Source: Candidatus Saccharimonadota bacterium
GTDB lineage: Bacteria; Patescibacteriota; Saccharimonadia; Saccharimonadales; Saccharimonadaceae
DNA length: 32,000 nt
Direction of reading: 5' to 3'
NCBI GenBank assembly: GCA_002421785.1
Contig: DIRZ01000002.1
Span: 300,001 to 332,000 of the forward strand
Position 1 is the first letter of the stretch. Every line of letters begins with the position of its first letter. Below are positions 3,450-21,646 of this stretch, piece by piece. The notes below the pieces were generated by a model that was not told the origin of the DNA, searched no databases, and worked only from the letters and a program-made list of their open reading frames with translations. The position numbers were made by a program, and so were the translations under genes.

Positions 3450-3454
3450 AATAC

Positions 3455-3483
3455 TTGCGTTTATGGCGTACTAGGTGTATTAC
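3455..3483 (+). promoter_or_regulatory. sigma70-type promoter candidate TTGCGT-N17-TATTAC
   Basis: -35 TTGCGT at 3455-3460, a 17-nt spacer, and -10 TATTAC at 3478-3483. Downstream SD AAAGGA lies 6 nt before ATG 3530. Confidence 0.45.
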
Positions 3484-3529
3484 ATAAAGTGTAGCTAACA
3501 TAAAACACACAATCCGTGAAAGGACTGCT

Positions 3530-4279: not shown

Positions 4280-4295
4280 GCTCGCCGTCGCCTGA

Positions 4296-4324
4296 TTGAC
4301 TATTTGTGACACTAGTGGCAAGAT
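4296..4324 (+). promoter_or_regulatory. promoter candidate TTGACT-N17-CAAGAT with TGn extension, 6 nt from the ATG
   Basis: -35 TTGACT at 4296-4301; TGG at 4316-4318 precedes -10 CAAGAT at 4319-4324. ATG 4331 follows after only AGGGGT, which implies a leaderless or near-leaderless transcript. Confidence 0.4.
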
Positions 4325-4330
4325 AGGGGT

Positions 4331-4936
4331 ATGTATAGAGGATCAGGTCCACGTATATTCCCGATAATTGTCGTTATTTTAGTGATAGCCCTTGTTATTG
4401 CCGCGCTCGTGTCAGTAGGGCGCATGATTTTTAGCGGCGGCGATTCGTCTGAGTCATCAAGTGGTGAGTCCACGGCTAACGTTGTGGCAGCGCTGCAGAA
4501 TATCAATGATTCGCGCGGGGTCCGCTGGACGGTTCGTGGACCAATTGTTGCCGATGAAGACTTTAGGAGTTACCAGATTACTGTGACACCAACTGAACGT
4601 AAGTTCGTCACGTACGCTGGCTACCTCGATCAAATCGTTGACGTCAAGTCGTACTCTAACAACACCGAAGCGTATGAGCAGTTTGTGTACGCCCTGGATA
4701 AAGCCAATGCTGGCACGACTAGGGAAGCAAGTGACGAAGATTTCCGAGGGGTCTGTGCAACCCAAGGATTTGCTTACAAGTTCGAGACGCTCAGCGACGA
4801 GCTGCCCGATCACATGCTGTGGACAACGACCTGCAAAGGCTCGAAGGGGACATTAGCTGCGAATACAACACAGGTTCATGCATTGTTTGTAAATCAGATT
4901 CCCGATTTTAAACCAGTCTTTACCCAGATTTACTAG
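4331..4936 (+). CDS. membrane-anchored hypothetical protein (N-terminal TM helix, extracytoplasmic domain)
   Basis: N-terminus MYRGSGPRIFPIIVVILVIALVIAALVSVG is a signal-anchor, followed by a Ser-rich linker and a ~150-aa globular region. TAG stop at 4934-4936. Confidence 0.7.
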   Translation: MYRGSGPRIFPIIVVILVIALVIAALVSVGRMIFSGGDSSESSSGESTANVVAALQNINDSRGVRWTVRGPIVADEDFRSYQITVTPTERKFVTYAGYLDQIVDVKSYSNNTEAYEQFVYALDKANAGTTREASDEDFRGVCATQGFAYKFETLSDELPDHMLWTTTCKGSKGTLAANTTQVHALFVNQIPDFKPVFTQIY

Positions 4937-4950
4937 TACAATAGAACTAT

Positions 4951-5526
4951 ATGATAAAGGGAATAATTTTTGATTGCTTTGGCGTGCTATATGGCGGGAG
5001 CCTTTCGACGCTCACATCTCTGTGCCCGCCGGAGCGTTACGAAGAGCTACGGAGCCTCAATAAGCAGGCGGACTACGGCTTTATTAGTGGCGAGGACTAT
5101 ATACAGGGACTGTCTGAAGTTCTAGGGATGTCGTATGGCGATGTGGCTCAGGTGATGGCCCGGAAGCATCACCGCAACGAGGAGCTTGTGGAGTTTGTGC
5201 GAGCGCTACGAGCGGATGGCGCTTATAAAATCGGTCTCCTCAGCAATGTGGGGAGCGGTACGGTAGAGCAGTTATTCGGTGATGATCTACGGCAATTATT
5301 CGATAGCGTCGTGCTGTCGTATCAGGAGAGTCTGGCTAAACCTAACCCAGGAATCTACACGCTTGCAGCGGAGCGCATGGGACTGAATGCGAGTGAATGC
5401 GTGATGATAGACGACCTGGAGCCCAACTGTGATGGAGCCGAGATCGCAGGGATGCAAAGCATACTGCACATCACTAATGACACCACGCGGCGTGAACTTG
5501 CAAGAATACTGAAAGAAGGTGCTTGA
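4951..5526 (+). CDS. HAD-superfamily hydrolase (subfamily IA-like)
   Basis: HAD motifs are present: I IIFDCFGVLY, II LLSNVG, III AKPNPGIY, IV MIDDLEPN. The Asp+2 position of motif I reads Phe, so classic phosphatase chemistry is uncertain. Confidence 0.85.
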   Translation: MIKGIIFDCFGVLYGGSLSTLTSLCPPERYEELRSLNKQADYGFISGEDYIQGLSEVLGMSYGDVAQVMARKHHRNEELVEFVRALRADGAYKIGLLSNVGSGTVEQLFGDDLRQLFDSVVLSYQESLAKPNPGIYTLAAERMGLNASECVMIDDLEPNCDGAEIAGMQSILHITNDTTRRELARILKEGA

Positions 5527-5551
5527 CATAGCATAAGCGGAGTGGGATAAT
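5523..5551 (+). promoter_or_regulatory. sigma70-type promoter TTGACA-N17-GATAAT heading the surface-protein island
   Basis: -35 TTGACA at 5523-5528 overlaps the HAD TGA stop. Exact 17-nt spacer, then -10 GATAAT at 5546-5551. SD AAAGGAAAC lies ahead of ATG 5587. Confidence 0.65.
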
Positions 5552-5586
5552 TTGGGCAGATAGTAACAAAAAGGAAACAAACAACC

Positions 5587-6177
5587 ATGAAACAACCAAT
5601 AAAATCAGCTCTTGCACTGAGTAGCGCAGTTGTCGCTGTCGTTGGACTTGTTCTTGCGCCAGTCGCCGCAGACGCTGCAAGCACAACTACTGTGACGGCG
5701 GTTCTTTCGGGAAGCGCATCTGTCTCATCGACAGGCACAACAGTATCACTTCCAATCACCCCAACAGTGAGCGGATCGTTTACGGCTGCTGCTGACACAG
5801 TTGTTGCGGGTACAAACAACCCAACAGGTTATAAGCTACAAATTAGTGGTACGCCAACAGCATTGACCAAGGGTGCCGATACTATTGCTGCATCATCTGG
5901 TACTCCTACAGCTGCTATCGCTCTTGCACCAAACACCTGGGGCTACCATGTTGATGGTCAATACAACTTTGCAGGAAGCGGCGCAGCTGTTACTAACCAG
6001 GCAAGCCTTGCGGGTACTTGGGCAGGCGTGACTGGCACGGCGGTTGATATTAAAACTGTTGCGACAGCTACTGCTTCAGACTCAACATCTGTCTGGTTTG
6101 GTGCTGGTGCAACCACTGCAAAGCCTGCGGGTAACTACGCGGCCGTTGTCACTTATACAGCAGTAACAAACCCATAG
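5587..6177 (+). CDS. secreted surface protein, WxL-domain-like layout
   Basis: Signal peptide MKQPIKSALALSSAVVAVVGLVLAPVAADA. The mature part is T/A/G/S-rich and Cys-free. GYKLQIS and NTWGYHV sit mid-domain, and the C-terminal strand PAGNYAAVVTYTAVTNP resembles the terminal aG-Y-x-x-LTWTL-x-x-P strand of WxL proteins with W replaced by Y. Confidence 0.75.
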   Translation: MKQPIKSALALSSAVVAVVGLVLAPVAADAASTTTVTAVLSGSASVSSTGTTVSLPITPTVSGSFTAAADTVVAGTNNPTGYKLQISGTPTALTKGADTIAASSGTPTAAIALAPNTWGYHVDGQYNFAGSGAAVTNQASLAGTWAGVTGTAVDIKTVATATASDSTSVWFGAGATTAKPAGNYAAVVTYTAVTNP

Positions 6178-6190
6178 GCACATTAGACGC

Positions 6191-7102
6191 ATGATTCAAG
6201 TGAACTATCACCGATTACTACTAGGGCTGGCAACAGCCCTAGTATTCGTCGCGGGCACTACAGTACCTGTCGGTGCGGCAGAGGATTTACGCGAGGGGAT
6301 GACGATATCACCGACCGAGAGGCGCTACAAGGCTAATCCTGGTGACACAATTACGGATTCATTTCAGATTCTTAACGATGGTCAGACCGCATACAACTTT
6401 ACGGTCTACGGCGCTCCTTATGGTGTGACCGATAGGGCGTACAATACAGTATACGAAGAGAGCAAGCCGCGTTCCGACGCCTACCGATGGGCACAATTTA
6501 GCCAATCAAACTGGCACGCAGAGGCGCGTGAAACGGTCACGATACCATTTACACTGCGTATTAGCGAGAATGCCTCACCTGGCGGCCACTACGGGGTGAT
6601 ATTTGCCGAGACTCAGCCTGCACCTAGTGATAGTGGCATTACGCGCAAAAAGCGGCTTGGTATGGTGCTGTATGTCACAGTGAGTGGTGATGTAAAAACC
6701 GAGGGAAAAGCCACAGGGCTCACTATCAATAGCTATCAGCCTGTTGCGCCCTTGCGTGCGAGCGCAAGCATCGAGAATACCGGCAATGTTGACTACGAAG
6801 CTACTTCTGTATTTGAAGTTTCTGACGTATTTGGCGGGGTGAAGTACAGAACCGCAGGGACGCATACTATTTTCCCTGCGACTACAAGGGATATTGAATT
6901 TACCTGGGATAAATCACCATGGTTTGGCCTTTACAAAGTCCATGCCGAAGTGACCGTGCTTGGTAAGCGCACCGTTCGCGATTCATACGTAGTGATTGCA
7001 CCAAACTGGCTACTATTCACCGCGCTTATCGCCATACTTATAGGGGGAATAAATGCGATTCGTCGTCGCCAGACTAAGCAGCGCCGTACGAAGCGCTTCT
7101 AG
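6191..7102 (+). CDS. CscA/DUF916-like cell-surface protein (signal peptide, two beta-sandwich-like domains, C-terminal TM anchor)
   Basis: Signal peptide LLLGLATALVFVAGTTVPVGA. MTISPTERRYKANPGDTITDSFQILNDGQTAYNFTVYG fits the DUF916-type opening. C-terminal TM WLLFTALIAILIGGINAI is followed by the basic stop-transfer RRRQTKQRRTKRF. Confidence 0.7.
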   Translation: MIQVNYHRLLLGLATALVFVAGTTVPVGAAEDLREGMTISPTERRYKANPGDTITDSFQILNDGQTAYNFTVYGAPYGVTDRAYNTVYEESKPRSDAYRWAQFSQSNWHAEARETVTIPFTLRISENASPGGHYGVIFAETQPAPSDSGITRKKRLGMVLYVTVSGDVKTEGKATGLTINSYQPVAPLRASASIENTGNVDYEATSVFEVSDVFGGVKYRTAGTHTIFPATTRDIEFTWDKSPWFGLYKVHAEVTVLGKRTVRDSYVVIAPNWLLFTALIAILIGGINAIRRRQTKQRRTKRF

Positions 7103-7886
7103 ATACCTTATCGTCGGTATCAGTATCGGCGTTCTCTTAGCTTGTATCCCTACATCTGCATCTGCACAAGGGACGACAGTCTCTGTGCCCTTGTGCGATG
7201 TAGCTCCGGCAACAATTGCTATTTCTACACCATTAAACAATAGCGTGTTCGACCAGCCTGCAGTCACCCTCACGGGTACTGTTTATCGTCTTACGCAAGT
7301 ACAACTTTACTTGAATGACAATTACGTTGCGACAGTCCCGCTAGATAGCGGAGCAACAACATTTACGACCGAGGTATACCTTTATCAGGGTACAAATAGC
7401 GTAAAACTCGTTGGTATTGATTTTTGCTCTCCGGCCAACCCAGAGGCTACTTGGACGATGATTTATGCGCCCGGGGCTCAGCCGACTGTCCAGCCGAAGC
7501 CCCCTGGAACGCTCCCTCGGCCCGTCCAGGCGGTAGTTGATTCATCAGCATACCTGCAAGAGCAGATAGACGTGGCATCACAGACCACGCCTGCACAGTC
7601 ATTTAGTGGGGCATTATACGAAGCGCTCGTAGCGCTTGATATCGCTCCGAAGAACGCGCCGCAAGAACAAATGAACCGTATGCTGCTTCGTATGGTTCTG
7701 ATTGTAACTGGAACGGCACTTTTGCTGTTCGCGAGCCCGTTCATATCACTGTACCACTGGGTGCGGTATAAGATTCTTCAGTGGAATATTCATGCGCTCC
7801 CTGAGCTAGTGCATCACCATGCGACACTTGTACTACGACTACTTGGTATCGTGCTTATCGCTATCCCATTCTTGTTCCTTGGCTAG
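7053..7886 (+). CDS. Ig-like-domain membrane protein (signal peptide plus two C-terminal TM helices)
   Basis: ATG 7053 overlaps the preceding gene by 50 nt. Signal peptide LIVGISIGVLLACIPTSASA. Ig-like stretch ISTPLNNSVFDQPAVTLTGTV...VQLYLNDNYVATVPLDSGATTFTTEVYLYQGTNSVKLVGID. Pro-rich linker, then hydrophobic helices LIVTGTALLLFASPFISL and LLGIVLIAIPFLFLG. Confidence 0.65.
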   Translation: MRFVVARLSSAVRSASRYLIVGISIGVLLACIPTSASAQGTTVSVPLCDVAPATIAISTPLNNSVFDQPAVTLTGTVYRLTQVQLYLNDNYVATVPLDSGATTFTTEVYLYQGTNSVKLVGIDFCSPANPEATWTMIYAPGAQPTVQPKPPGTLPRPVQAVVDSSAYLQEQIDVASQTTPAQSFSGALYEALVALDIAPKNAPQEQMNRMLLRMVLIVTGTALLLFASPFISLYHWVRYKILQWNIHALPELVHHHATLVLRLLGIVLIAIPFLFLG

Positions 7887-7902
7887 GGATTCCTGCTATA
7901 CT
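7872..7902 (+). promoter_or_regulatory. internal promoter candidate with extended -10 TGCTATACT
   Basis: TTGTTC at 7872-7877 and TGC+TATACT at 7894-7902. ATG 7912 lies 9 nt downstream with no SD. The same 10-mer TGCTATACTA recurs at 16267-16276. Confidence 0.4.
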
Positions 7903-7911
7903 AGAAATACC

Positions 7912-9237
7912 ATGAGGGGTATTGTTAGGCGCATAGTACTAGCTGGCGGCGCGATCGCCATTTTGGGCGGATTCTACGAGGTTTCGGCAGATACCTTTAG
8001 CTCGACAAACTACGTGATTAATGCGAGTGTCATGAACAGCACCGGTGGCCTGGGCACATCGACGAGCTACAAGCTAGTGAGTAGCGCGGGCGAGAGCGTA
8101 ATCGGAGATGGAGCAAGCGGTAGCTACAAAATGAGCGCAGGCTACGTCGCGCAACTGCAGCAGGCTGCTCCGCAGTCGATGACACTTGCGGTGCAGCCGA
8201 GCGGGCTTGTCGGGTATTATCCGCTGGACGAAAATACAGGTACGGTAGCGGGTGATGACTCTTCTAACGCTGCTCACGGCACACTTGTCGGTTCACCAAC
8301 CTGGGCAACGGGACAAGTGGGCTCTGCGTTGACATTCAACGGTTCGTCACAAGCGGTATCGGTGGGGAATAACTCACAAACACAGCTAACGAACGGCACT
8401 GTTTCCGCGTGGGTTAAGTCGACGGCCAGCACTGGTACTCGCGCCATTGTGCACAAACTAAATAGCTATTATCTCCAGTTTAGTGCTGGTAAAGTTGCAC
8501 TGTACGATTGGACGGGGGCAACCACCTGTGCGGCGACTGCTAGCTCTACGGATGGCAACTGGCATCATGTGGCAATGACGCTGCAAAGCGGGGTATCGAA
8601 TGGCACTACCCTGTATGTTGATGGCGCAGCAGTAAAAACATGCACGTGGACGCCCGTTAGCCAAACGGGGAGCCTGGTTATTGGGGCGGCGTACTCCGGT
8701 TCGTATAGTGACTACTTTGATGGAACGATTGACGAAGTAAAGTTGTTTAGTCGCGTGCTCAGCGCAGACGAAGTTGCGGCAGAACGATCGGCGGGCGTCG
8801 CTGGGTTCCCGGCCGGCGTTGCTATCAGTAATATCATTCCAGGCAGTCCGGCAAGCGTAACGGCGGATGCAATTGTAGAAACAGTAAACGTACCAAATTA
8901 CACGCTCACCATCAATCAAGATCACGATTTGCAAAATGGCGGCAACACTATCGCGGCGATTAGCGGTTCGATTGCATCGCCGGCGGCATGGTCGAATGGC
9001 ATCACTAAGGGGTTTGGTTTCACGCTGGTTTCTGCGCCGGGGCTGGACGGCAAGTGGGGAAGTGGGGCTAATTACGCGGCGGCACCTGGCTCGGCAACGA
9101 CGTTCTATACCCGGACTGGGGCGAGCAACTCTGTGAAAGACGTGGTGGCAATGCGACTTAAAGCCGACACAACACTCAGCACTCCAGCTGGCCAGTATAC
9201 CAATCAGCTAACGATAACAGGGACAATTACACCGTGA
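7912..9237 (+). CDS. LamG/concanavalin-like lectin-domain surface protein with a WxL-like C-terminal module
   Basis: Signal/anchor MRGIVRRIVLAGGAIAILGG. LamG-type signature: GYYPLDENTG, GTLVGSPTWATGQVGSALTFNG, VSAWVK, WHHVAMT, LYVDGA, YFDGTIDEVKLFSRVLSADEV. The last ~130 aa parallel the 5587 product and end PAGQYTNQLTITGTITP. Start trimmed to ATG 7912; the ORF-track 7819 start would overlap the upstream gene. Confidence 0.8.
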   Translation: MRGIVRRIVLAGGAIAILGGFYEVSADTFSSTNYVINASVMNSTGGLGTSTSYKLVSSAGESVIGDGASGSYKMSAGYVAQLQQAAPQSMTLAVQPSGLVGYYPLDENTGTVAGDDSSNAAHGTLVGSPTWATGQVGSALTFNGSSQAVSVGNNSQTQLTNGTVSAWVKSTASTGTRAIVHKLNSYYLQFSAGKVALYDWTGATTCAATASSTDGNWHHVAMTLQSGVSNGTTLYVDGAAVKTCTWTPVSQTGSLVIGAAYSGSYSDYFDGTIDEVKLFSRVLSADEVAAERSAGVAGFPAGVAISNIIPGSPASVTADAIVETVNVPNYTLTINQDHDLQNGGNTIAAISGSIASPAAWSNGITKGFGFTLVSAPGLDGKWGSGANYAAAPGSATTFYTRTGASNSVKDVVAMRLKADTTLSTPAGQYTNQLTITGTITP

Positions 9238-10079
9238 GTCGCTATTGGTTGGCCATCATTTTTGCGCTGGGTTTGACCTTTTTATGTAACAGTTCACCCG
9301 CAGCCGCCTCATCAATCCGCCTCCAGCCCGCAATTGTTCGTGGCGAGCTTGAGGGTGGCGAAAAACAAAAAGGCTATATTGACGTCATTAACCCTGATTC
9401 CTCAAAGATTGTCGTGTCGTTTAGTGTGCAGGCATTTCGGCAAAAGGACGACAGTGGGGCGGTTGAGTTCTATGAGGATGCGCAGCTGAGCCGGGGCCTA
9501 TTACTCGATTTTAACGAAGTGGAGCTAGGCGGTCACGAGGCACTCAGGCTTTATTACCAGGCGGATGCAGCGCTACTACCGGCCGGGGACGTACTCGCGG
9601 CTATCTTTGCTACGGTGAAGCCCGTTAAGGATGCGCCGGCTGCCCAAGCGGTGCGCGTCGGTACCTTGCTGGTGTTGCAGAATACTAGTACGCCCAAGCG
9701 CCAGCTCGCAGTGGCGGAACTGTCGGCAAGCCCGTTGCAGTTTGGTTCGGCCCTCCAGGCCGAGTTTGCTTTGCGGAATGATTCTCCACCTGTCAACGCG
9801 TTCTTCCCACAGATTACCGTGAGCACTGCGCCCTATGGGAAGCAGGTTGTAGAAGGCCCATTGGTGACGTCGGGGCGTCAGCGAACCATTAGCTATGTAA
9901 AACCAGGTGATTATTTAGGCCCCGTTAAGGTAACGGTAAGTGTTGATGGCGGCCAAAAATCGGCGTGGATTTTTGCTATAACAGGTTTCTGGCAGTGGCT
10001 GTTTCCGCTGCTGCTTGGCATTGTTGCAACAATCTTTGCGATATTCCGTATGCGAACTGTTTATAACAGGGGTAGATAA
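9234..10079 (+). CDS. second CscA-like / chaperone-like beta-sandwich protein with a C-terminal TM anchor
   Basis: GTG start overlaps the LamG gene stop (GTGA), suggesting translational coupling. Signal peptide LAIIFALGLTFLCNSSPAAA. SIRLQPAIVRGELEGGEKQKGYIDVINPDSSKIVVSFSVQAFRQ has the same architecture as the 6191 product. C-terminal TM WQWLFPLLLGIVATIFAIF plus RMRTVYNRGR. Confidence 0.7.
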   Translation: MSRYWLAIIFALGLTFLCNSSPAAASSIRLQPAIVRGELEGGEKQKGYIDVINPDSSKIVVSFSVQAFRQKDDSGAVEFYEDAQLSRGLLLDFNEVELGGHEALRLYYQADAALLPAGDVLAAIFATVKPVKDAPAAQAVRVGTLLVLQNTSTPKRQLAVAELSASPLQFGSALQAEFALRNDSPPVNAFFPQITVSTAPYGKQVVEGPLVTSGRQRTISYVKPGDYLGPVKVTVSVDGGQKSAWIFAITGFWQWLFPLLLGIVATIFAIFRMRTVYNRGR

Positions 10080-10082
10080 CGC

Positions 10083-10111
10083 TTGCGTTTATACTAGGTA
10101 CGCAATATAAT
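10083..10111 (+). promoter_or_regulatory. sigma70-type promoter TTGCGT-N17-TATAAT for the giant beta-helix gene
   Basis: -35 TTGCGT at 10083-10088, exact 17-nt spacer, consensus -10 TATAAT at 10106-10111. This leaves a ~90-nt 5' UTR containing AAAAGAGG at 10168-10175. Confidence 0.6.
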
Positions 10112-10205
10112 TTATAGTGAGCCACCGTGTACCAATGTGTAGGCGTGTGGAGAAATTAAAAAACATAAAAAGAGGTAAACAATAATAAACACGCTTAAAA
10201 AGTCC

Positions 10206-13200
10206 GTGTTGTTATTCTTCGTGCTACCGGCGTTAGCCACTGCAGTAGCACTTGTTTGCTTTGGTCAAACTGCCCAGGCAGTGCAGACCGTCCCCTATAA
10301 AATGAACTTCCAAGGCCGCCTAACTGATGCCGTTGGCACGCCAAAACCTGATGGTATCTACAACATTAAATTCCGCATCTACAACGCCGCCAACACTGCC
10401 GTTTGGACGGAAGACCGTTTAGTCTCTGCCAGCCAAGGTGTCCAAGTCACGGGTGGCCTATTTACCGTCCAGCTCGGGAGTATTACTCCTCTCGACCCCG
10501 CACTCTTTAACACAGCTACCACCAACCAAAACGGCATGACCCTTGAAGTTGAGCTGCCAACCCCCGCGACTGCTACCTCCAGCTCCCCAAGCTGGACAGA
10601 AGGCGCCATGACGCCTCGTAGCCCCCTGGCTACCAGCGCCTATGCGTTCAATAGCGATACGCTGGATGGGTTGGATAGCACTGATCTCGTCCGTAACCAA
10701 AACTCCGCCCAGCAAACTGCCAGCAACTTCTGGATTAGCGGCACAGGCCGTGCTGACACCGCCCTCCAAGCTCCCCTCATCGACACTGCCACTGCGACCG
10801 CCCTTAACATCGGTACTACCAATGCCACCCTCATCAACCTCAACAAAGACGTCGCCGTCGCCGCAGGCAAGAGCCTCACCCTCGCCGGTGGCACCACCGC
10901 CAGCCGCCCAGGCACGCCAACCGAAGGCATGATCTACTACGACACCGACACCAAACAACTCCTGACGTATGCGAATGGGAAGTGGCAGGCGGATGGCAAA
11001 GAAGCCATCATTGTGGCAGCAAGTAACTCTAGCGATGCCGACAAGGCAAGTGCCGACTACGTAGCAGACGGCAACACTGCTGCCGCTGCAGATGGTGATC
11101 AGGTGCAGATCAATAACGCGCTGACCGCAGCAGCGGGTAAAAAGGTTGTCTTGCTGGCCGGAACCTATACTGCCGACGCGTCCATCCTTATTCCGAACAA
11201 TACGACGCTGGCTGGGGTAGGCAAAGGGACCTTAATCAAGCTAGCCGATATTGATGTCACTGAGAACTTGATTGAAAACAGCGACACCACGACTGGTGCG
11301 GGCATTGTCATACGTGAACTGATGATAGACGGGCAAAAAGCTTTGAACACGGTGGGAATACAAAACGGTATTTATTTGAACGGAGTTGGGGATGGTACGG
11401 GCACTCGAAATGGAGCATCTGTTATTAACATCAGCGCTAGTGACTTTAATAATTACGGGATAGCGCTCTCGAATTCCAACAACTCTCTTATGACTGGGAA
11501 TACGTCACGTGGCAGTGTCGCTGGTATTATGTTAACTACGTCGTCGACGGTTAACACGGTCAGCAATAACATAGTACAGGGAAACGTCTATGGTATAGCT
11601 GTATTCAGCAATTCCAATAACAATACAATCAGTGCAAATCAGTTTAGCGGTAACACTGGATATGGCATCAGCCTACAGAGCGCCCACAACAACACAATCG
11701 ATACGAATATGCTGCAGGGCAACTCTTCAAGCATATCCTTGATCACAAGCACCTCCAATACTGTAACGGGCAATACGGTTCAGTCGGGCACGTCAAATGG
11801 GATTACTGTGTCTAATAGCGCGGACGGCAATACTGTAACGGGCAATACGGTAGTAAATAGCGCTTCAAATGGCATTGCGGTTAGCTTGAGTTCAAAAAAC
11901 ACAATTACCGGAAACACGATTCAAAGTAGTGTCTCGCGGGGTATATATCTTTTTACTGCGCATAACAACACCGTGAGTGGTAATGCGATACATGATAGCG
12001 CGGGAGCGGGAAATAACTTTGGAGTTATGGCGGATGCTGCGGATTCTAACACAATTACCGGAAACACCATTACCGATACTGCTGCAACCACTAACTATGC
12101 CATTAGTATCGCTAATTCCACCTCCGACAAAAACTACCTTGCTGACAACGTTTTTAGTAGTACCCCTGGCACAGCGACCATTGAAGATCTCGGCACTGGT
12201 ACCACCTACGCCAACCAGCCGCGAGCAGAGAATGGCACCAGGCTTACCACTCGCACCACCAACAACACTGAAGCATTCGTTATTCAAAACGCCTCTGGCG
12301 CCAACCTGCTAACTGCCGATACAGCTAACGGTGAGATCGAACTTGGCTCGGCGTCGCTTGCTGGAAAACTTGTAGTGTCTGATGGCACCTCAAACACACT
12401 TACCTTGAGTGTCGCAGCCTTAGCCGGCAACTACACGGTCACTATCCCGACTATCACTGGAAACGATACTGTTTGTTTGCAGGCACTAGGTAACTGTGGG
12501 GGGGCTCCTAGTGGTACTACCGCTAGCCGCCCCGCAAGCCCCAGCGAAGGCATGATGTATTACGATACCGATACCGACAGCCTCGTGATTTATAGCAACG
12601 GAAGATGGCAAGCCGACAGTAAATCTACAACTTTTATTGTAGCCGCAAATAACTCTCCTCAGGCAGTTAAGGACTCGGCCGACTATGTCGCAAATGGGGA
12701 GGATAGCGTGGGTTCGGGTATTGGGACGCTCGACGGTGATCAGGTGCAGATTAACGATGCGATTAATGCTGCCGCTGCCGCAAGTCCTGCTGGCGGTACC
12801 GTGTATCTCTCAGAAGGTGTCTATACGTTGGATGGGCCGATTGTGATAAAGAATAATATTACATTGGCGGGATCGGGCATGGGGACGGTGATTCAGTTCG
12901 GTAACTTTGGCGCAACAGCCACGAATGTAAACATGGTCACAAACTTCGATACGAGCACAGGAACCGGTGTTATAGTGCGGGATATCCGCCTAGATGGGCG
13001 TGATGGCATCAATACAAACGGCACGCAAAACGGCATATATTTTACAGGTATGGGTGCGAATAGTGGGCCGAGCGCGAGGAGTGGGGCTACTGTTACCAAT
13101 ATCTATGCCAGGGACTTAAAAAATACCGGGGTATATGTTGGCGGTGCAAATAACAAATTGGCCAACAATACAGTTCAAGGAAGTGATACTGCTATATGGT

Positions 13201-15752: not shown

Positions 15753-15759
15753 CACCGGG

Positions 15760-16221
15760 CTATTTTTTGAAAGAAGTGGCAATGGCTACGAAATCGGCAT
15801 ACTTCATAGTTGTAGGGCCGGTCAATATAATCCAGTTGTCGTCAATCTGCATGCTGGCCGTAAGTCTACCCCTGATCTGACCGATAGTGGCATTATTGAT
15901 GGTTTCCGGTAGGCCGAGCTGTTCTTTTTCGAACTTCTCTATAATCGCGCGGTCGGGTTGGGGTTGAATACTAACATTTAACAGTTCGGAGGCTGTTTTA
16001 ATAATATATACGGTCGCTGAGCTTGTTTGGCTGAGGCTACTTTGGTCTACGGTGTAGCCACTCGGCAAGGCAGAAGGGTAATAAACGGCAGCTTGGGTGG
16101 ACTGAGCGTTTTGTACTACTTGGGGTTTAATAAAAACCCTATTTGTCAGTGCCGCTCCAGCTAAAATCGCAATGGATAACACGGCTACTGCGGCAAAAAA
16201 TAGTTGCTTTTTCTTGGACAT
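15760..16221 (-). CDS. membrane-anchored hypothetical protein on the opposite strand between the two giant genes
   Basis: MSKKKQLFFAAVAVLSIAILAGAAL is a signal-anchor, followed by a ~125-aa extracytoplasmic domain. ATG at 16221 is preferred; GTG at 16239 is the alternative. It lies 7 nt from the beta-helix gene stop, in convergent orientation. Confidence 0.6.
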   Translation of the reverse strand: MSKKKQLFFAAVAVLSIAILAGAALTNRVFIKPQVVQNAQSTQAAVYYPSALPSGYTVDQSSLSQTSSATVYIIKTASELLNVSIQPQPDRAIIEKFEKEQLGLPETINNATIGQIRGRLTASMQIDDNWIILTGPTTMKYADFVAIATSFKK

Positions 16222-16266
16222 GTTTTTATTGTAGCGCACAACAACCTGTTATATGCATGTGCTTTT

Positions 16267-16275
16267 TGCTATACT
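16267..16275 (+). promoter_or_regulatory. extended -10 element TGCTATACT upstream of the Kelch giant
   Basis: TG at 16267-16268 and TATACT at 16270-16275, in the 16240-16307 divergent intergenic region. No good -35 is present. Confidence 0.4.
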
Positions 16276-16319
16276 ACTTGCATATAGATATAGGGGTAGA
16301 GCGACTTGTGTTTAAACTG

Positions 16320-19300
16320 ATGTTGAGGCCTGTGAAGCGGCAAGCTGGGAATCGGATACGGTACAATACTAAGCGCGGAAGGCGCGTTATAGATCGAGTA
16401 TTTCATATGGTCGCAAACTTTTATAATGCAGTGGCTGCGCCATTACAAACGCGACACCAGCATCTTATGGTTAAGCACGCGTTTATGCGCACCCTCTGGT
16501 TCCGTACCATCTTGCACCTCTCGGTCATCCTGCTCATCATCTCACCACTCTATGCTGTGTTAGATTACGTCCTGAAAGACATCAGCTACCGCATATCCGA
16601 CAAAGAATCCGCCCTCGTCAGCGCCTCGACCGTGGATAGCGACTTCATTAAACAATCCGACACCGCCATTACCTACAACCGCGCGGACGAAGCAGCAGGA
16701 GACAAAGACCTCCAAACCGTCCTGACGCTCGCTGCCAACAAAGAAGACGCCACTGGCAAAAAACCCTACCAAGCCGAACTTTCCAAAAACGCCAAACAAG
16801 GCATTACCTTTAGTGACAGCGAAGGTGACCGCAGCGTCACCTTAACGCCTACCTTTACCGTAGGCGAAGCTCGCCTGCAGGACAACCGCGTGGTCTACCC
16901 GGCCAGCACCACCGAAAAGCACATCTACAGCTTTAAGAACAACGGCATCAAGAGTGACATCTTGCTCACCCAAGCGCCCGGCACTAACACCAAAACCTAC
17001 AGTTGGGACCTTGGTCTAGACAGTACTCTTGAAGCCCGTATGCTGCCTGACGGGGGAGTGGGTATCTACTCAGCTGACCCAACTCTCTACAGCAACCTCC
17101 AAATCTCTGACCAAAAGAGCCAAGAGCTCGTCGACAAAGCACGCACCAATGCCCAAAAGAACACCTTGGTCTTCGAGCTGCCACGTCCCTTCATTCTCGA
17201 CGCCAACAACAAACAGATTTACACTGGTGTGAGCTACGGCCTGACCAACGACAAAGCCGACGACAAAGGCAACAAAAACAACGCCACCACCCTCACTCTG
17301 ACAGCCGCCAACCTCAAACAGCAAGCCTATCCACTCAGCATCGACCCAACCATTACAGTCACCACCACCGCGGACTTCCGCCAAAACACCGGCGATACGG
17401 GCAATGTGGACTTCGGGACGGATGGGGAGATTAGGAGGGGAGCTGGTGGCTCGGGTGCACTTGCTACTGCTGTCCAGCAGAACGGCATATTTTCGCCGGC
17501 GCGGAGTGGCCACACTTCCGTCGCCTACAACGGCTACCTGTACATTATCGGAGGGACAAATGGTACGCGCCAGAATGACATCCAGTACTGCTCACTTGGA
17601 TCAGACGGTGCGGTCGGTAGCTGTACGCAACAAGCTAACGCTTTTACGACCGCCCGCGAGCTTCATACTTCCGTCGCCTACAACGGCTACCTGTACATCA
17701 TTGGAGGTGATGGTGGCTCAAATCTTAACGATGTGCAGTATTGCCCTTTAAACTCCGATGGCACTGTCGGTGCGTGCGCGTCGACAACTAGCTTCACAAC
17801 TGCCCGTTCTAGCCATACATCCGTCGCCTACAACGGCTATTTGTATGTGATCGGAGGAGTGCACGCCGCTTCTGATACTGCTTGTAATGGGGCTGCCTCT
17901 GTTTATTGCTCCGATGTTCAGTATGCTCCCTTTAATGCCGATGGCACGCTCGGTACCTGGACTGCCACCACTAGTTTTACTACCGCTCGCTCCGAGCATA
18001 CCTCCGTCGCCTATAATGGTTACTTCTATGTTATAGGTGGTAGAGACATCTCAGATATTACTAATATCCAGTATGCTCCCGTCAACGCCAACGGCACAAT
18101 CGGTACGTGGACTGCTACGACAAGTCTTGACAAGGTCAGAAGCGGGCATGCATCAACAATCGCTAATGGCTATCTGTACGTATCGGGCGGACACAATGGT
18201 CTTGGTCTTGAGGACACAGTGGTAGGTGCTCCGCTAAGGGCTAACGGTACTATCGGTGACTGGAATCTCGGCAATGTCTTCACTACTGGGCGAGGGTTTC
18301 ACGCCTCCGTTTCGCATAATGGATACATGTACATAATAGGTGGAACTGACGGAGGGGCTGACCAAAATGACATTCAGCGCCTCAAGGTCAACCCACTCGT
18401 AGTAGGCGGCTCGATCTCCCAAGGTACTATCCTTACTGCTCGCCAGGGGCACACGGCAGTTGCCTATAACGGTGCAATCTACATCGCTGGCGGTTGCTCA
18501 TCAGTCTTTATTACCTGTAACGGCTATCGTAGCGACATTCAGCGCTGTCCGCTCAACGCCGACGGCTCAGTGGGGACGTGCGTGAACCAGACGGCAACCA
18601 TAACCGGGGCTCGCGAAGGTCATGGCTCGATTATCTATAACGGCTACCTATATATCATCGCAGGTACTACTGGTACGAGGCAATCAGATATACAAAACTG
18701 CAATATTGCCGCAGACGGCACTATTGCTTCATGCAGTCAACAAACAAATCGCGTAGTGACGGCACGTGATGGGGTGGGTGAAGCGGTCGCAGTTAGTGAC
18801 GGGTACCTATATCTTACGGGTGGCAATACCGATTCGCTGCAAAATGACATTCAGCATTGCAAAATAAATACTGATGGAACAGTGGATGTTTGCACGCAGC
18901 AGACTGCTATGTTTACAACTGCCAGACGCGGTCACTCCACGGTGATATATAACAACTACATCTATATCATTGGTGGCCTGACTGGCTATTTGCGCGACGT
19001 TATCCGTTGCTCAATCAACCTGTCGACCCACGCCGTGAACAACGACTGTACTCAGCAAGCCAATATACTAAACCAGGGTCACGGTGATTTCAGCGCTTTT
19101 GTTCACAACGGGTACCTCTACTCTGTCGGTGGTACGTATTCCTCGGGCAACTACCTTAACACTGTCGAGTATTGCCCGTTCAATAGTGACGGCTCGATCG
19201 GTGCCTGTACCACCCAGACCGCCGTATTTACGACGGCTCGTCAGAACCAAGCGACCGTGCTCTGGAATGGCTTCATGTACATCATAGGAGGGTATGGCGG

Positions 19301-21059
19301 TAGTCACCTCGGCGATATACAGCGTATGCAAATAGGTCGCCCAAACGGTGTGGCGGGCGCAGCTACGCAGCAAACGAGCGCATTTGCCACGGCGCGTCAG
19401 GGACAAAGCTCGGTGGTCGCAGGTGGCTATTTGTATATCATCGGTGGTACGGATGGCACCCGGCGCAACGACATCCAATACTGTGCGATGGGTGCAGACG
19501 GGCTGGTGGGGGCATGCACCTTGCAATCAGGCGCGTTTACCACGCCTCGCGACGGGCATACGAGTGTGGTGTATGATGGCTATTTGTATATTATCGGGGG
19601 GCAGAGTGGGGCATCGGCATACGAAAATGATATCCAGCGCTGTCAGATACTGAGCAATGGTTCAGTCGACACCTGTACCCAGCAAACTGGCGCGTTTACA
19701 ACCGCGCGTACAGAACACAGTTCTGTCGTCTATGATGGCTATTTGTATATTATCGGGGGCACCAACGGTACTGCGCAGAACGACATTCAGTATTGCGCGA
19801 TTAACGCTGACCATACTGTAGGCACGTGCACGCAGCAAACGAGTGCTTTTGCGACGGCTCGCTACGCACATACCTCACAAGCGTATAACGGGTATCTGTA
19901 TATTACGGGTGGCTATCACGACACTAGTGACACGCTATGTAGCCCGACGACGAGTTCCAATTACTGCTCGGATATTCAATATTGTCAACTCAACACGAAC
20001 GGTACCGTCGGTGCGTGTCTTACGCTGTCAGGCGCGTTCGTTACTCCGCGCTCCGACCACTCAACTGTTTTTTACAATGGCTATCTGTACGTGATGGGCG
20101 GCACTAATGGGACGAAACTCGGTGATATCCAGTATTGCCCCGTGAGAGCCGACGGCGTCGTGGAGTCATGCGTGGTGCTTGGGAGCGGTTTTAGCCCGGC
20201 TCGTTCGGGGCATAGCTCGGTTGTGTATAGTGGACGTATCTACATTATTGGGGGTGAGCAGGCGACGGCCAACATTGCCTGTAATGCAAGTTCCTCGGTG
20301 TATTGTTCTGATATCCAACGAGTTTCGGTCGGCAATATAACAGACGATGCTCGTTATGAGCGCCTGATCAAGATAGGTGAGTCAGAAACTAAGTTGAGTT
20401 CATTTACGGTTAGCGGCGACGCTACTTGTCGGTATGTCGTAGTCTATAAAACTGCTGGCGATGATGGGGTGTTTGGGTCGGTGACAAGACTAGACAATGT
20501 TATACCTGGTGCCGCACAGTCGCTCGGTGATATTGTTAAAAAGTATATCCATATCACCGTTGAGTTGCAGGGTGCCTCCTGTGGTGGTAGTGCGAGCGTT
20601 ACGAGTATCGCTGTCGCGTACATTTCAGCCCCAACTGCGCCGACTCTCATCAGCCCAGCTGACGCGGCGCTGGACGTTAGTTTATCCCCCGAGTTCAGCT
20701 TGTCTACTACAGACGGAGATGGCGATACCATCAAATACAAAATCGACATCTGCAGCGTGAGCGACTGTGCATCTGTCGTGCGCAGTATCGATCAAACTGT
20801 TTCAGCAACGGGTTGGTCGGCAGCCAGCTATGCGAGTGGCGCAACGGCTACCTATACTCTTGTAGCACCCGCACTCAACGAAACAACGCAGTACTGGTGG
20901 CGAGCGGCTGCTATCGATGAAGCCGGCTCAAACACGTGGAGCGTTTACTCTCCTATATCTACATTTACAACGCTCAGATCCACCACGCCGACGGATATAT
21001 CCATATCGGGTGGCGGTGTGACTATCTATGGTGGGTCAGAGCTAACAACAGGGAACTAG
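16320..21059 (+). CDS. giant membrane-anchored Kelch-repeat (18-blade) surface protein with a C-terminal FN3-like domain
   Basis: The start is uncertain: GTG 16308, ATG 16320 or ATG 16407. The ORF-track start 16143 overlaps the divergent gene and is rejected. TM helix TILHLSVILLIISPLYAVL. 18 blades of the type ARSGHTSVAYNGYLYIIGG...DIQYC...DG.VG.C. The C-terminal module APTLISPADAALDVSLSPEFSL...IKYKIDIC...TQYWWRAAAIDEAGSNTWSVYSPISTFTT is FN3-like. Confidence 0.85.
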   Translation: MLRPVKRQAGNRIRYNTKRGRRVIDRVFHMVANFYNAVAAPLQTRHQHLMVKHAFMRTLWFRTILHLSVILLIISPLYAVLDYVLKDISYRISDKESALVSASTVDSDFIKQSDTAITYNRADEAAGDKDLQTVLTLAANKEDATGKKPYQAELSKNAKQGITFSDSEGDRSVTLTPTFTVGEARLQDNRVVYPASTTEKHIYSFKNNGIKSDILLTQAPGTNTKTYSWDLGLDSTLEARMLPDGGVGIYSADPTLYSNLQISDQKSQELVDKARTNAQKNTLVFELPRPFILDANNKQIYTGVSYGLTNDKADDKGNKNNATTLTLTAANLKQQAYPLSIDPTITVTTTADFRQNTGDTGNVDFGTDGEIRRGAGGSGALATAVQQNGIFSPARSGHTSVAYNGYLYIIGGTNGTRQNDIQYCSLGSDGAVGSCTQQANAFTTARELHTSVAYNGYLYIIGGDGGSNLNDVQYCPLNSDGTVGACASTTSFTTARSSHTSVAYNGYLYVIGGVHAASDTACNGAASVYCSDVQYAPFNADGTLGTWTATTSFTTARSEHTSVAYNGYFYVIGGRDISDITNIQYAPVNANGTIGTWTATTSLDKVRSGHASTIANGYLYVSGGHNGLGLEDTVVGAPLRANGTIGDWNLGNVFTTGRGFHASVSHNGYMYIIGGTDGGADQNDIQRLKVNPLVVGGSISQGTILTARQGHTAVAYNGAIYIAGGCSSVFITCNGYRSDIQRCPLNADGSVGTCVNQTATITGAREGHGSIIYNGYLYIIAGTTGTRQSDIQNCNIAADGTIASCSQQTNRVVTARDGVGEAVAVSDGYLYLTGGNTDSLQNDIQHCKINTDGTVDVCTQQTAMFTTARRGHSTVIYNNYIYIIGGLTGYLRDVIRCSINLSTHAVNNDCTQQANILNQGHGDFSAFVHNGYLYSVGGTYSSGNYLNTVEYCPFNSDGSIGACTTQTAVFTTARQNQATVLWNGFMYIIGGYGGSHLGDIQRMQIGRPNGVAGAATQQTSAFATARQGQSSVVAGGYLYIIGGTDGTRRNDIQYCAMGADGLVGACTLQSGAFTTPRDGHTSVVYDGYLYIIGGQSGASAYENDIQRCQILSNGSVDTCTQQTGAFTTARTEHSSVVYDGYLYIIGGTNGTAQNDIQYCAINADHTVGTCTQQTSAFATARYAHTSQAYNGYLYITGGYHDTSDTLCSPTTSSNYCSDIQYCQLNTNGTVGACLTLSGAFVTPRSDHSTVFYNGYLYVMGGTNGTKLGDIQYCPVRADGVVESCVVLGSGFSPARSGHSSVVYSGRIYIIGGEQATANIACNASSSVYCSDIQRVSVGNITDDARYERLIKIGESETKLSSFTVSGDATCRYVVVYKTAGDDGVFGSVTRLDNVIPGAAQSLGDIVKKYIHITVELQGASCGGSASVTSIAVAYISAPTAPTLISPADAALDVSLSPEFSLSTTDGDGDTIKYKIDICSVSDCASVVRSIDQTVSATGWSAASYASGATATYTLVAPALNETTQYWWRAAAIDEAGSNTWSVYSPISTFTTLRSTTPTDISISGGGVTIYGGSELTTGN
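17490..20340 (+). repeat. array of 18 Kelch-type blade repeats (48-62 codons each), partly identical at the DNA level
   Basis: Counted in translation; see finding. Perfect 32-nt direct repeat ACTTCCGTCGCCTACAACGGCTACCTGTACAT at 17514-17545 and 17667-17698. Perfect 29-nt repeat TATGATGGCTATTTGTATATTATCGGGGG at 19572-19600 and 19731-19759. Confidence 0.85.
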
Positions 21060-21064
21060 CGTGC

Positions 21065-21094
21065 TTGTCGCGGTTATCACGCTCGTGGTATGAT
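21065..21094 (+). promoter_or_regulatory. promoter candidate TTGTCG-N18-TATGAT with TGn extension
   Basis: -35 TTGTCG at 21065-21070. TGG at 21086-21088 plus TATGAT at 21089-21094, just after the Kelch gene stop. Confidence 0.45.
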
Positions 21095-21112
21095 TAACAG
21101 AGTTAATTAGTG

Positions 21113-21646
21113 ATGTATGGGGGTATGATGGAAGGAATTGGACGACCGGTGCAACATACTGCAAAACCAGTGCAAGCAGCACGCTTAGCACAGCATGATA
21201 CGGGCGAGCCTGTACGGGCCAGGAAGAAGCCTCGGACAAAGAAGCCGATGGTGTTTATCGGTATCATCGTAGCACTGTTGCTAGTGGTGGGCGGTTGGTT
21301 TGCGGTGCAGTACTACACCTACAGGGGTATCGATACTAGTCGTTACCAGGCCGTATACCTGGACAACGAGAATGTTTATTTTGGCAAAGTACAGTACATG
21401 CTGAACGGTGACGTGTTGCTTGATGATGTATTCCGTGTACAAGCAGGTGAGGCCACGGCAGCCGAGGGTGAGGGCGCGGCTACCGCAGCTGACATTCGCC
21501 TCATCAAACCAGGCAACGAACTCCATGCGCCAGATGACACGATGCGGATTACGCGATCTAAAGTTGTGTTCATCGAAAACCTCAAGACTGACGGCAAGGT
21601 AACGCAGGCCATCACTGATTACCTAAAAGACAAAAGTGTTAAGTAG
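21113..21646 (+). CDS. membrane-anchored hypothetical protein
   Basis: Basic N-terminal segment (RARKKPRTKKP), then TM MVFIGIIVALLLVVGGWFAV, then a ~115-aa outside domain. Several in-frame starts are possible (21110 GTG, 21113 ATG, 21248 ATG). Confidence 0.6.
   Translation: MYGGMMEGIGRPVQHTAKPVQAARLAQHDTGEPVRARKKPRTKKPMVFIGIIVALLLVVGGWFAVQYYTYRGIDTSRYQAVYLDNENVYFGKVQYMLNGDVLLDDVFRVQAGEATAAEGEGAATAADIRLIKPGNELHAPDDTMRITRSKVVFIENLKTDGKVTQAITDYLKDKSVK

Follow-up and report, generated by a model that had tools for sequence, protein, structure and literature searches.

A conserved Saccharibacteria gene cassette that probably encodes a minimal, Pam-like, chaperone-assembled surface fibre

The window analysed here is a stretch of 32,000 nucleotides (nt) from a Candidatus Saccharimonadota bacterium (GenBank assembly GCA_002421785.1, contig DIRZ01000002.1, positions 300,001 to 332,000), and the subject of this report is a run of genes for secreted and membrane-anchored proteins that lies between positions 5523 and 21059 of it. 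A preliminary description, made from the letters alone, had taken this run for a single 15.5-kb, seven-gene island of surface proteins, similar to the Csc/WxL cell-surface complex loci of Firmicutes and apparently undescribed. Its gene list and coordinates are borne out by a map of open reading frames (ORFs), in which all of the ORFs exist at the places given. The features are listed below, with protein lengths in amino acids (aa); the names WxLIP and Pam refer to systems that are introduced further on.

5523-5551, plus strand: sigma-70-type promoter-like site, TTGACA-N17-(TG)GATAAT, ending 36 nt before the first start codon
5587-6177, plus strand: 196-aa minimal pilin-like subunit
6191-7102, plus strand: 303-aa chaperone-like protein with a membrane anchor, of WxLIP / PamC-PamD type
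7053-7886, plus strand: 277-aa PamR-like protein, anchor or terminator candidate
7912-9237, plus strand: 441-aa LamG protein, PamT-like, candidate tip adhesin (the longest ORF starts at 7819 and gives 472 aa)
9234-10079, plus strand: 281-aa second chaperone-like protein, with a GTG start
10206-15752, plus strand: 1848-aa secreted parallel beta-helix protein
15760-16239, minus strand: 159-aa protein with an N-terminal membrane anchor
16143-21059, plus strand: Kelch protein of 1638 aa; the likelier start is 16407 (1550 aa), as in the JGI gene call

The extent of the conserved unit was determined by a scan of species-representative genomes, which yielded 80 related loci, and by a synteny table built from these with tblastn. 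The order of the 196-aa, 303-aa, 277-aa, LamG and 281-aa genes, followed by the N-terminus of the giant beta-helix protein, was found in about 55 Saccharibacteria genomes, essentially in all loci that were long enough (L005-L066). Gene order across relatives, which had been proposed as a check on the island, is therefore strongly conserved for the first six genes. The Kelch gene and the 159-aa gene, by contrast, occur in none of the 80 related loci apart from an identical contig (L001), a 208-kb JGI metagenome contig that carries the same locus and is 99.97% identical to the window. Because these two genes are missing from related loci, the 15.5-kb island resolves into a conserved cassette and an appendix: the conserved unit is 5523-15752 (about 10 kb), and 15760-21059 is strain-specific. 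Nor can one promoter serve the Kelch gene, since that gene lies past an opposite-strand gene. Of the seven-gene island, then, the first six genes keep their place, and the Kelch protein, considered as a member of the system, was rejected for its absence from all related loci. The 159-aa protein, which has no family match in Pfam, NCBIfam or PHROG, is probably not part of the system either.

On the 5' side, the shared order reaches beyond the cassette, running from a 324-aa gene through a 201-aa membrane protein and a HAD hydrolase to the 196-aa gene. The corresponding genes occupy 2475-5526 of the window (a 324-aa protein of no known family, a 201-aa protein with an N-terminal transmembrane segment, and the HAD hydrolase) and are syntenic with the cassette in many relatives. 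The wider flanks are housekeeping genes, with PolA, dUTPase and HAD on one side and Fpg, HolA, TruB and GreA on the other. Neither tRNA genes nor Rfam families at the gathering threshold were found in the window (1-32000).

The genes of the cassette are tightly packed. A gap of 13 nt separates the 196-aa gene from the 303-aa gene, the 303-aa and 277-aa frames overlap by 50 nt (7053 versus 7102), and the GTG start of the 281-aa gene sits in a GTGA overlap (9234-9237) with the stop codon of the LamG gene; both overlaps had been described before and follow from the ORF coordinates. The clean promoter TTGACA-N17-GATAAT that had been reported at 5523-5551 is present and strong, matching at 11 of 12 positions with an extended-10 TG in addition, and it is the best sigma-70-like match in 4900-21300, a region in which the total of promoter-like sites is not above that of shuffled sequences (19 versus 17.3). 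A site matching at 10 or more of 12 positions within 120 nt 5' of the orthologous first gene was found in 33 of 60 related loci as against 1 of 177 coding control windows, and the promoter is thus a conserved feature.

Such packing and conservation bear on the simplest alternative, that membrane proteins and unrelated secreted adhesins (beta-helix, Kelch, LamG) merely lie side by side in the locus and do not act together. This appears very improbable. It would suit the Kelch and 159-aa genes, which are not conserved beside the cassette, as well as the body of the giant beta-helix protein, which is highly variable between genomes, and the ordinary housekeeping character of the flanks; it leaves unexplained a six-gene order kept in about 55 species-level genomes with overlapping or coupled frames, a conserved upstream promoter, and a set of components each of which has its counterpart among the homologues of an established pilus system, as described below.

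Export of all seven same-strand products, as previously claimed, is predicted from N-terminal hydrophobic signal or anchor segments, which are present in seven of seven. C-terminal transmembrane segments were predicted in three of them, with one helix in the 303-aa protein, one in the 281-aa protein and two in the 277-aa protein; both the export and the transmembrane calls were made by hydropathy only. In agreement with the preliminary description, no LPXTG motif was found in the seven proteins by a regular-expression search, and family scans of the 32-kb window revealed no sortase.

Two described systems are relevant to these proteins. The Pam system of Candidatus Mycosynbacter amalyticus (Saccharimonadia) comprises the pilins PamA, PamB and PamE together with PamT, PamC/PamD and PamR. 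The pilins are two-domain proteins of 39-55 kDa, consisting of an N-terminal nine-strand sandwich, a linker donor strand and a C-terminal domain, and cryo-electron microscopy (cryo-EM) of PamA and PamB filaments showed that the C-terminal truncated-Ig domain of a pilin accepts the donor strand of the next subunit. PamC and PamD were proposed to be FimC/PapD-like chaperones with a C-terminal transmembrane helix, PamT is a single-domain tip subunit, and PamR, which is RbmA-like and membrane-anchored, was proposed as the terminator. The pam genes constantly have a tail-fibre-like gene as a neighbour, and the operons are flanked by ATP synthase, CorB and MFS genes (bioRxiv 10.64898/2026.03.03.709456). 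The comparison with Pam rests here on the NCBIfam models NF058578, NF058579 and NF058581 and on Pam-type loci found by them, the M. amalyticus genome not being among the 80 loci returned.

The other system is the WxL cluster of Lactobacillales and Bacillales. It combines a small WxL protein that is the domain alone (CscB), a large WxL protein in which adhesive domains are joined to a C-terminal WxL domain (CscC), and WxLIP, which consists of DUF916, DUF3324 and a transmembrane segment (CscA); the WxL proteins are described as peptidoglycan-bound surface complexes, not as filaments (PMC9772566, PMC10599100). According to the WxL literature, the distal WxL motif YXXX(L/I/V)TWXLXXXP lies at the C-terminus.

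The 303-aa protein connects the locus to both systems. Its AlphaFold2 (AF2) model (pLDDT 93.3, pTM 0.79) shows two beta-sandwich domains between a signal peptide and a C-terminal helix (residues 272-301). In a Foldseek search of the Protein Data Bank (PDB), the top matches of this model were Enterococcus faecium WxLIP (9i1y, 9i25, "bound to long WxL"; E = 7e-12 to 2e-11), followed by RbmA and then by many chaperone-usher (CU) chaperones, among them CupB2 as well as CfaA, CsuC, EcpB, FimC and Caf1M (the last five at E = 1e-9 to 4e-7). The TM-scores of these matches are modest, 0.4-0.6, as is expected where the inter-domain angle differs. The claim that this protein is CscA/DUF916-like thus holds for fold and topology, that is, for the signal peptide, the two Ig-like domains and the transmembrane segment. 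At the level of Pfam profiles it holds in part. At E <= 1 no window protein matches the families WxL, DUF916 or DUF3324, and the 303-aa and 281-aa proteins match neither PF06030 nor PF11797, whereas 13 of 52 members of the 303-aa family do match WxLIP_PGBD/DUF916 (PF06030) below threshold, with a best E of 1.2e-4. A Gracilibacteria relative, 28% identical by tblastn, passes the cut-off of the same model (33.3 versus 27.3 bits), and the chaperone relatives from Actinomycetota and from Pam loci match the same part of the DUF916 model below threshold.

By BLASTP the 303-aa and 281-aa proteins are not significantly similar. Their family profiles align by hhalign with a probability of 99.4% (E = 8e-22), and the two proteins are paralogous, each with two Ig-like domains and a C-terminal membrane helix, in line with the earlier reading of the 281-aa protein as a second CscA-like anchor. 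Against the chaperones of Pam-type loci, the 303-aa family scores 100% (E = 1.5e-47) and the 281-aa family 99.8% (E = 3.6e-28), and the 303-aa protein is 24-29% identical to the chaperones of canonical Pam-type loci. The family is large. At E <= 1e-3 the 303-aa profile retrieves 10,158 cluster representatives; 248 homologues were found for the 303-aa protein and 96 for the 196-aa protein, the labelled ones all from Saccharimonadales. The strand PGGHYG(V/A)(I/L)F is invariant in 52 diverse homologues and lies in the window at 6575-6615, residues 129-142 of the 303-aa protein. Used as a peptide pattern, it retrieved 130 related genomic loci.

Among the proteins tentatively paired with these chaperones, the 196-aa protein is the simplest. 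Behind its signal peptide come a short N-terminal strand, TTTVTAVL (TTINATV in the consensus of the family), and then a single domain, the stretch from signal peptide to C-domain being only about 20 residues long; its AF2 model has a pLDDT of 85, with residues 1-40 not confidently modelled. A C-terminal module common to the small protein and the LamG protein had been claimed, and BLASTP supports this marginally (29% over 139 aa, E = 0.055). Since a profile-profile comparison of the two families succeeds where BLASTP is marginal (hhalign 97.6%, E = 2.8e-12, collinear to the C-terminus over the last 150 residues of the LamG protein), the shared module is confirmed. The same module aligns with the C-domains of Pam pilins, at 98.2% (E = 3e-14) for the 196-aa family and 99.0% (E = 3.8e-18) for the LamG-protein C-terminus. 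The set of pilin C-domains used was taken from loci that include one pilin with 132 bits on NF058581 (cut-off 55), and negative controls of similar composition, namely the giant N-terminus and the 277-aa family, reached 0.2-12.6% in the same run. Furthermore, 196-aa orthologues match NF058581 (CPR_Pam_pilin_C; CPR, candidate phyla radiation) over positions 3-146 of 148 with 18-28 bits, under its cut-off, and 35 of 74 pooled module sequences match it at E <= 1. Judged by these profiles, the module of the 196-aa and LamG proteins is homologous to the strand-acceptor domain of Pam pilins. Sequence searches of the PDB with the family profiles and with single proteins gave nothing relevant, and no Pam or WxL chain was among the results.

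The C-termini of the two module proteins recall the distal WxL motif. The 196-aa protein ends in YAAVVTYTAVTNP, with the pattern Y-x3-V-T-Y-x-A-x3-P, and the LamG protein in YTNQLTITGTITP, with the pattern Y-x3-L-T-I-x-G-x3-P. The spacing, the tyrosine, the hydrophobic position (phi), the threonine and the terminal proline of the motif are kept, and, as had been noted, the tryptophan is replaced, by Y or I, as is the leucine, by A or G. The WxL-like character claimed for the small protein is accordingly upheld in layout, in the motif only as far as its frame, and not in domain assignment, because Pfam WxL (PF13731) matched 0 of 61 small-protein homologues at E <= 10 and neither window protein at E <= 1. 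Weak matches to SCPU, the archaic CU pilin domain, were seen in 9 of the 61.

A second motif, phi-(N/D/G)-A-x-phi, follows directly after the signal peptide in the 196-aa, 277-aa and LamG families. In the 196-aa family it takes the form NTTINATV (46 of 61 members), in the 277-aa family STQINANIC or QTSIGATIC, and in the LamG family SYIIDASV; it was not found in the chaperones or in flanking genes, except inside signal peptides. In a subset of small subunits (P0167, P0175, P0183, P0191, P0202, P0211 and P0214), a Cys segment YGSGxYGxCxYGxC replaces TTINATV.

The LamG identity claimed for the 441-aa protein is confirmed by a Pfam match to Laminin_G_3 (E = 2e-27). The protein is built of a signal peptide, an N-terminal segment (STNYVINASV...SYKL...SYKM), an insert of about 197 aa with the LamG domain, and the C-terminal module. 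In an orthologue of 240 aa, which has no LamG and is as large as PamT, the alignment covers residues 8-82 and 280-441 of the window protein, on either side of the lectin, and LamG thus lies in an insertion of about 197 residues. Orthologues match the PamT model NF058579 in its N-terminal half with 38-40 bits, the 240-aa form over positions 4-146 of 241 with 40 bits, the cut-off being 240. PamT-like proteins fall into size classes, one with no insert (237-247 aa; L012, L015, L019 and L066), one with the LamG insert, and one with a longer insert (650-720 aa; L022, L034, L036, L047 and L050). Because orthologue sizes differ in this way, the position is a modular insertion site, at which a variable adhesive module is placed between a conserved N-terminal segment and the C-terminal module.

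In the 277-aa protein, a signal peptide is followed by the strand GTTVSVPLC, a single Ig-like domain, a proline-rich stalk and two C-terminal transmembrane segments. The N-terminus of its family, [ST][TSE]-[IV]-[GN]-A-[TI]-[IV]-C, is like that of the 196-aa family. It was described earlier as an Ig-like membrane protein, which agrees with the transmembrane segments, with a weak Pfam match to Big_7 and with a match to NF058578 (CPR_pilus_PamR) of 25.5 bits (E = 5e-6, cut-off 300), in which residues 49-117 align with positions 49-116 of 297, so that the Ig domains coincide in position. The PamR model is matched by 7 of 37 orthologues. By sequence, the 277-aa protein resembles PamR, a membrane-anchored Ig-domain protein.

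The giant 1848-aa protein is a parallel beta-helix protein as claimed, with Pfam matches to NosD (E = 1e-64) and Beta_helix (E = 1e-56) and a para_beta_helix repeat; it also matches PHROG tail-spike families (1e-7 to 5e-9). Its first 160-250 aa or so are conserved and are the sole matching part in at least 33 syntenic loci, and the body of the protein in relatives varies both in length (about 400-1300 aa) and in sequence. By hhalign, the giant N-terminus is unrelated to the pilin and chaperone profiles. Since the N-terminus is conserved and the body variable, a role in host-specific binding or as a depolymerase fits, and as a candidate fibre that goes with the cassette the protein might bind or degrade the host. 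On the JGI contig, at L001 14016-19524, two single-base indels break the gene up, so that it is called as pieces of 149 aa and 1680 aa; in the window the gene is intact.

How far these components reproduce a WxL/Csc cluster can now be stated. As in such a cluster, a small single-domain protein is accompanied by a large protein that shares its C-terminal domain and by a transmembrane partner with two Ig-like domains, and the LamG protein, like the large WxL protein, combines an adhesive inserted domain with the shared domain. The C-terminal frame Y-x3-phi-T-aromatic-x-small-x3-P is retained, in structure the 303-aa model comes closest to WxLIP (E = 7e-12), DUF916 is matched below threshold in the family and above it in the Gracilibacteria relative, and attachment is predicted to be non-covalent, LPXTG not being needed. 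The locus departs from WxL/Csc clusters in the absence of Pfam WxL matches (0 of 61) and of DUF916 or DUF3324 matches in the window proteins, in the replacement of the eponymous Trp and Leu, in having two WxLIP-like genes and a PamR-like gene and no LPXTG protein of the CscD type, and in its host, which is a CPR bacterium and not a Firmicute. Of the Csc/WxL analogy drawn in the preliminary description, the architecture and the WxLIP fold are therefore retained, and Pfam WxL membership, the Kelch protein and the label of an undescribed system are given up.

A deep common origin with WxL clusters is nevertheless suggested, on modelled structure and sequence, by the WxLIP fold match, the kept C-terminal frame and a pair of neighbouring genes in Gracilibacteria. 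In this pair (L073 9084-10867, from a metagenome-assembled genome (MAG)), a 201-aa subunit ending in YLTTVTYTLASG adjoins the chaperone-like protein that passes the DUF916 cut-off, and the pair forms a sequence bridge from CPR to WxL cluster families. When the Gracilibacteria subunit was itself used to look for homologues, with the aim of reaching the WxL proteins of Firmicutes, it retrieved nothing but itself.

If the WxL analogy were taken literally, the product would be a static complex, the chief rival to the fibre proposed below, in which anchored WxLIP-like proteins each hold one WxL-like protein 1:1 with no polymerisation, so displaying the lectin and perhaps docking the giant beta-helix protein. 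Several observations agree with such a complex: the top PDB matches of the 303-aa model are WxLIP, including "WxLIP bound to long WxL"; the composition is that of the published minimal WxL cluster (small, large, WxLIP); each module gene directly precedes a chaperone-like gene, the second pair being translationally coupled; the C-termini keep the frame of YXXX(L/I/V)TWXLXXXP; DUF916 homology is bridged by the Gracilibacteria relative above the Pfam cut-off; and there is no sign that the small subunit is differentially over-expressed. We nonetheless consider a static complex unlikely, because its defining domain is matched by none of 61 family members and its motif-defining Trp and Leu are replaced, and because the module is homologous to the Pam pilin C-domain, which polymerises in the cryo-EM structures. 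The presence of a PamR-like anchor with a pilin-like N-terminal strand likewise makes most sense for a fibre that needs termination.

A further comparison is with the CU pili of Gram-negative bacteria (Fim/Pap, class 5 CFA/I, archaic Csu). The chaperone fold, the weak SCPU matches, a small Ig-like subunit that has about 165 residues when mature and conserves a beta-strand motif at its C-terminus, and an adhesin in which a lectin domain is joined to a pilin-type domain are all common to the two, yet here there is neither usher nor outer membrane, the chaperones are membrane-anchored, and neither in sequence nor in fold does the subunit match CU pilins significantly (best E = 0.19). Family searches over the ORFs of the locus and window gave no usher. 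A classical pilus, whether chaperone-usher, sortase-dependent or type IV, is the least credible of the readings considered: the fold match of the chaperone-like protein to CU chaperones and the SCPU matches in 9 of 61 small-subunit homologues would be in keeping with the first of these, while no usher, sortase, LPXTG motif, type IV pilin or type IV ATPase was found in the locus or window, and periplasmic PapD and FimC lack the C-terminal membrane anchor seen here. The CU, sortase and type IV pilus readings were rejected because these defining components are missing. The tandem Ig/FnIII fold of Vibrio cholerae RbmA is also among the top matches of the 303-aa model (E = 1.6e-10), and PamR has been described as RbmA-like (bioRxiv 10.64898/2026.03.03.709456); RbmA differs in being a soluble matrix protein with no transmembrane anchor, and the TM-scores are low (0.26-0.33).

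The closest described relative is the Pam pilus, whose NCBIfam models weakly match these proteins or their orthologues, and the locus can thus no longer be called an undescribed system. Both occur in the same phylum-level group and consist of Sec-exported components, with neither usher nor sortase. Each has two transmembrane-anchored chaperones whose fold is PapD-like, and the C-terminal acceptor domains of their subunits are homologous (hhalign 98-99%); also common to them are a PamT-like protein and a membrane-anchored, PamR-like Ig protein, which here stands in the same relative place, between the two chaperones; in both a tail-fibre-like giant protein adjoins the cassette, as judged from the PHROG tail-spike matches and the syntenic N-terminus. 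Unlike in Pam, the sole candidate for a repeating subunit is the 196-aa protein, an acceptor domain alone, and the PamT-like protein carries a LamG lectin insertion. What is new here is a widespread minimal branch of Pam, in which the subunit has one domain and the PamT-like protein bears a lectin, and which lies under every curated Pam threshold; current Pam models leave this whole family branch unannotated.

Taken together, genes 5587-15752 probably constitute an operon, conserved in Saccharibacteria, for a minimal surface fibre of the Pam type that is assembled by chaperones with neither usher nor sortase. As the likeliest product we infer a fibre put together by chaperones, and not a static complex bound to the wall, with polymerisation of the 196-aa subunit inferred as well; such a structure would most likely be a thin, lectin-tipped fibre, a divergent relative of Pam pili and a more distant relative of WxL/Csc clusters. 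In the proposed mechanism, each acceptor-domain protein would, after Sec export, be held by the chaperone encoded directly downstream through beta-strand complementation, the pairs being the 196-aa protein with the 303-aa protein and the LamG protein with the 281-aa protein; the invariant GGHYGVIF of the chaperone is the candidate for the complementing strand. The LamG/PamT-like protein would start the fibre as its lectin tip. Copies of the 196-aa protein would then polymerise, each giving its N-terminal TT(I/V)xAx(I/V) strand to the preceding subunit, an idea that in sequence is best supported by the motif phi-(N/D/G)-A-x-phi and with which the disorder of the N-terminal 40 or so residues in the monomer model agrees. 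The 277-aa protein, whose mature N-terminus is like that strand, may cap the base and tie the fibre to the membrane. The giant beta-helix protein, docked to the same apparatus, may add a further function that is specific to the host, either binding or the degradation of glycans. The purpose of the whole would be attachment to a host bacterium.

A number of observations weigh against this fibre. Scores on the NCBIfam models are far under the cut-offs (0-28 versus 55, 40 versus 240 and 25 versus 300 bits), and the window's own 196-aa and LamG proteins match no Pam model at E <= 1. The 196-aa subunit lacks the N-terminal nine-strand sandwich that stabilises PamA and PamB filaments, and its model has no significant match in the PDB (best Foldseek E = 0.12) and weak ones to CU pilins (best E = 0.19), so that of the structure searches proposed earlier the one with the 303-aa model succeeded, by way of WxLIP, and the one with the 196-aa model did not. 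The putative tip protein also has the N-terminal strand motif, which fits ill with a tip that has no donor strand to give. No terminator or attenuator was found after the 196-aa gene, and pilus operons usually make an excess of the major subunit. The flanks have housekeeping genes in place of ATP synthase, CorB and MFS. Lastly, the top structural match of the 303-aa protein is the WxLIP-WxL complex, which in the literature is a surface complex and not a pilus.

The relatives reach beyond CPR bacteria. Loci in Actinomycetota/Acidimicrobiia MAGs (L076 8503-15158; L081 9240-11110; L079 3603-5564; L084 8989-15548; L078 11932-16491) encode a small secreted subunit ending in ...Y-x3-H-T-Y-T-x, a chaperone-like protein with a signal peptide and a C-terminal transmembrane segment, and a secreted protein of 1300-1500 aa. 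By hhalign the chaperone aligns with the 303-aa family at 99.9% and the subunit with the 196-aa family at 97.2%, and one of these relatives sits on a 1.1-Mb contig. Because both chaperone and subunit align, the system is not confined to CPR bacteria. Tentatively, and with rather less assurance than the fibre itself, one may go on to propose that this cassette, the CPR Pam pili, the WxL/Csc clusters of Firmicutes and the unannotated Actinomycetota (Acidimicrobiia) loci belong to one ancient monoderm superfamily that works by membrane-anchored chaperones and strand complementation. Were this true, the WxL domain would be the homologue of the Pam pilin acceptor and DUF916/WxLIP that of PamC/PamD, the Saccharibacteria cassette would be the minimal form, with a single-domain subunit polymerising in the manner of CU pilins with no usher, Pam-type systems would not be exclusive to CPR bacteria, and WxL clusters could be tested for assembly of the donor-strand type.

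To our knowledge, every Saccharibacterium in culture lives attached to a host bacterium, and little is known of how the host is recognised and held; the role of WxL clusters has likewise, as far as we know, been unclear since 2006. Behind a strong promoter that is itself conserved, the cassette joins a chaperone-dependent subunit to a lectin and to a tail-spike-like protein that is hypervariable. It is widespread, occurring in about 55 species-level genomes, and public data contain over 10,000 representatives of the chaperone family. For these reasons it is a genetically tractable candidate for host attachment and host range. Through the WxLIP fold, the Gracilibacteria DUF916 protein and the Actinomycetota relatives, it also forms a bridge between CPR pili and the WxL/Csc clusters of lactic acid bacteria and enterococci, and the evidence that links Pam chaperones to WxLIP/DUF916 and to Actinomycetota relatives is new.

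Canonical Pam-type operons were seen in other Saccharibacteria and Patescibacteria (L075 6692-11769; L072 7095-16953; L071 and L080, about 4000-11100; L067 and L069, about 7400-15300). In these, two or three pilins of 320-380 aa (or about 750 aa) alternate with transmembrane-anchored chaperones, and none of the chaperones of these operons matches an NCBIfam Pam model. Within the appendix of the window, the Kelch protein does consist of Kelch repeats as described, with matches to Kelch families in 16 Kelch_1 stretches (Pfam) behind an N-terminal signal anchor, its membership in the unit being the part of the claim that was dropped. From its likelier start (16407-21059), it carries Ig/FnIII-like C-terminal repeats and matches PHROG 12615, a family of unknown function, at 1e-22.

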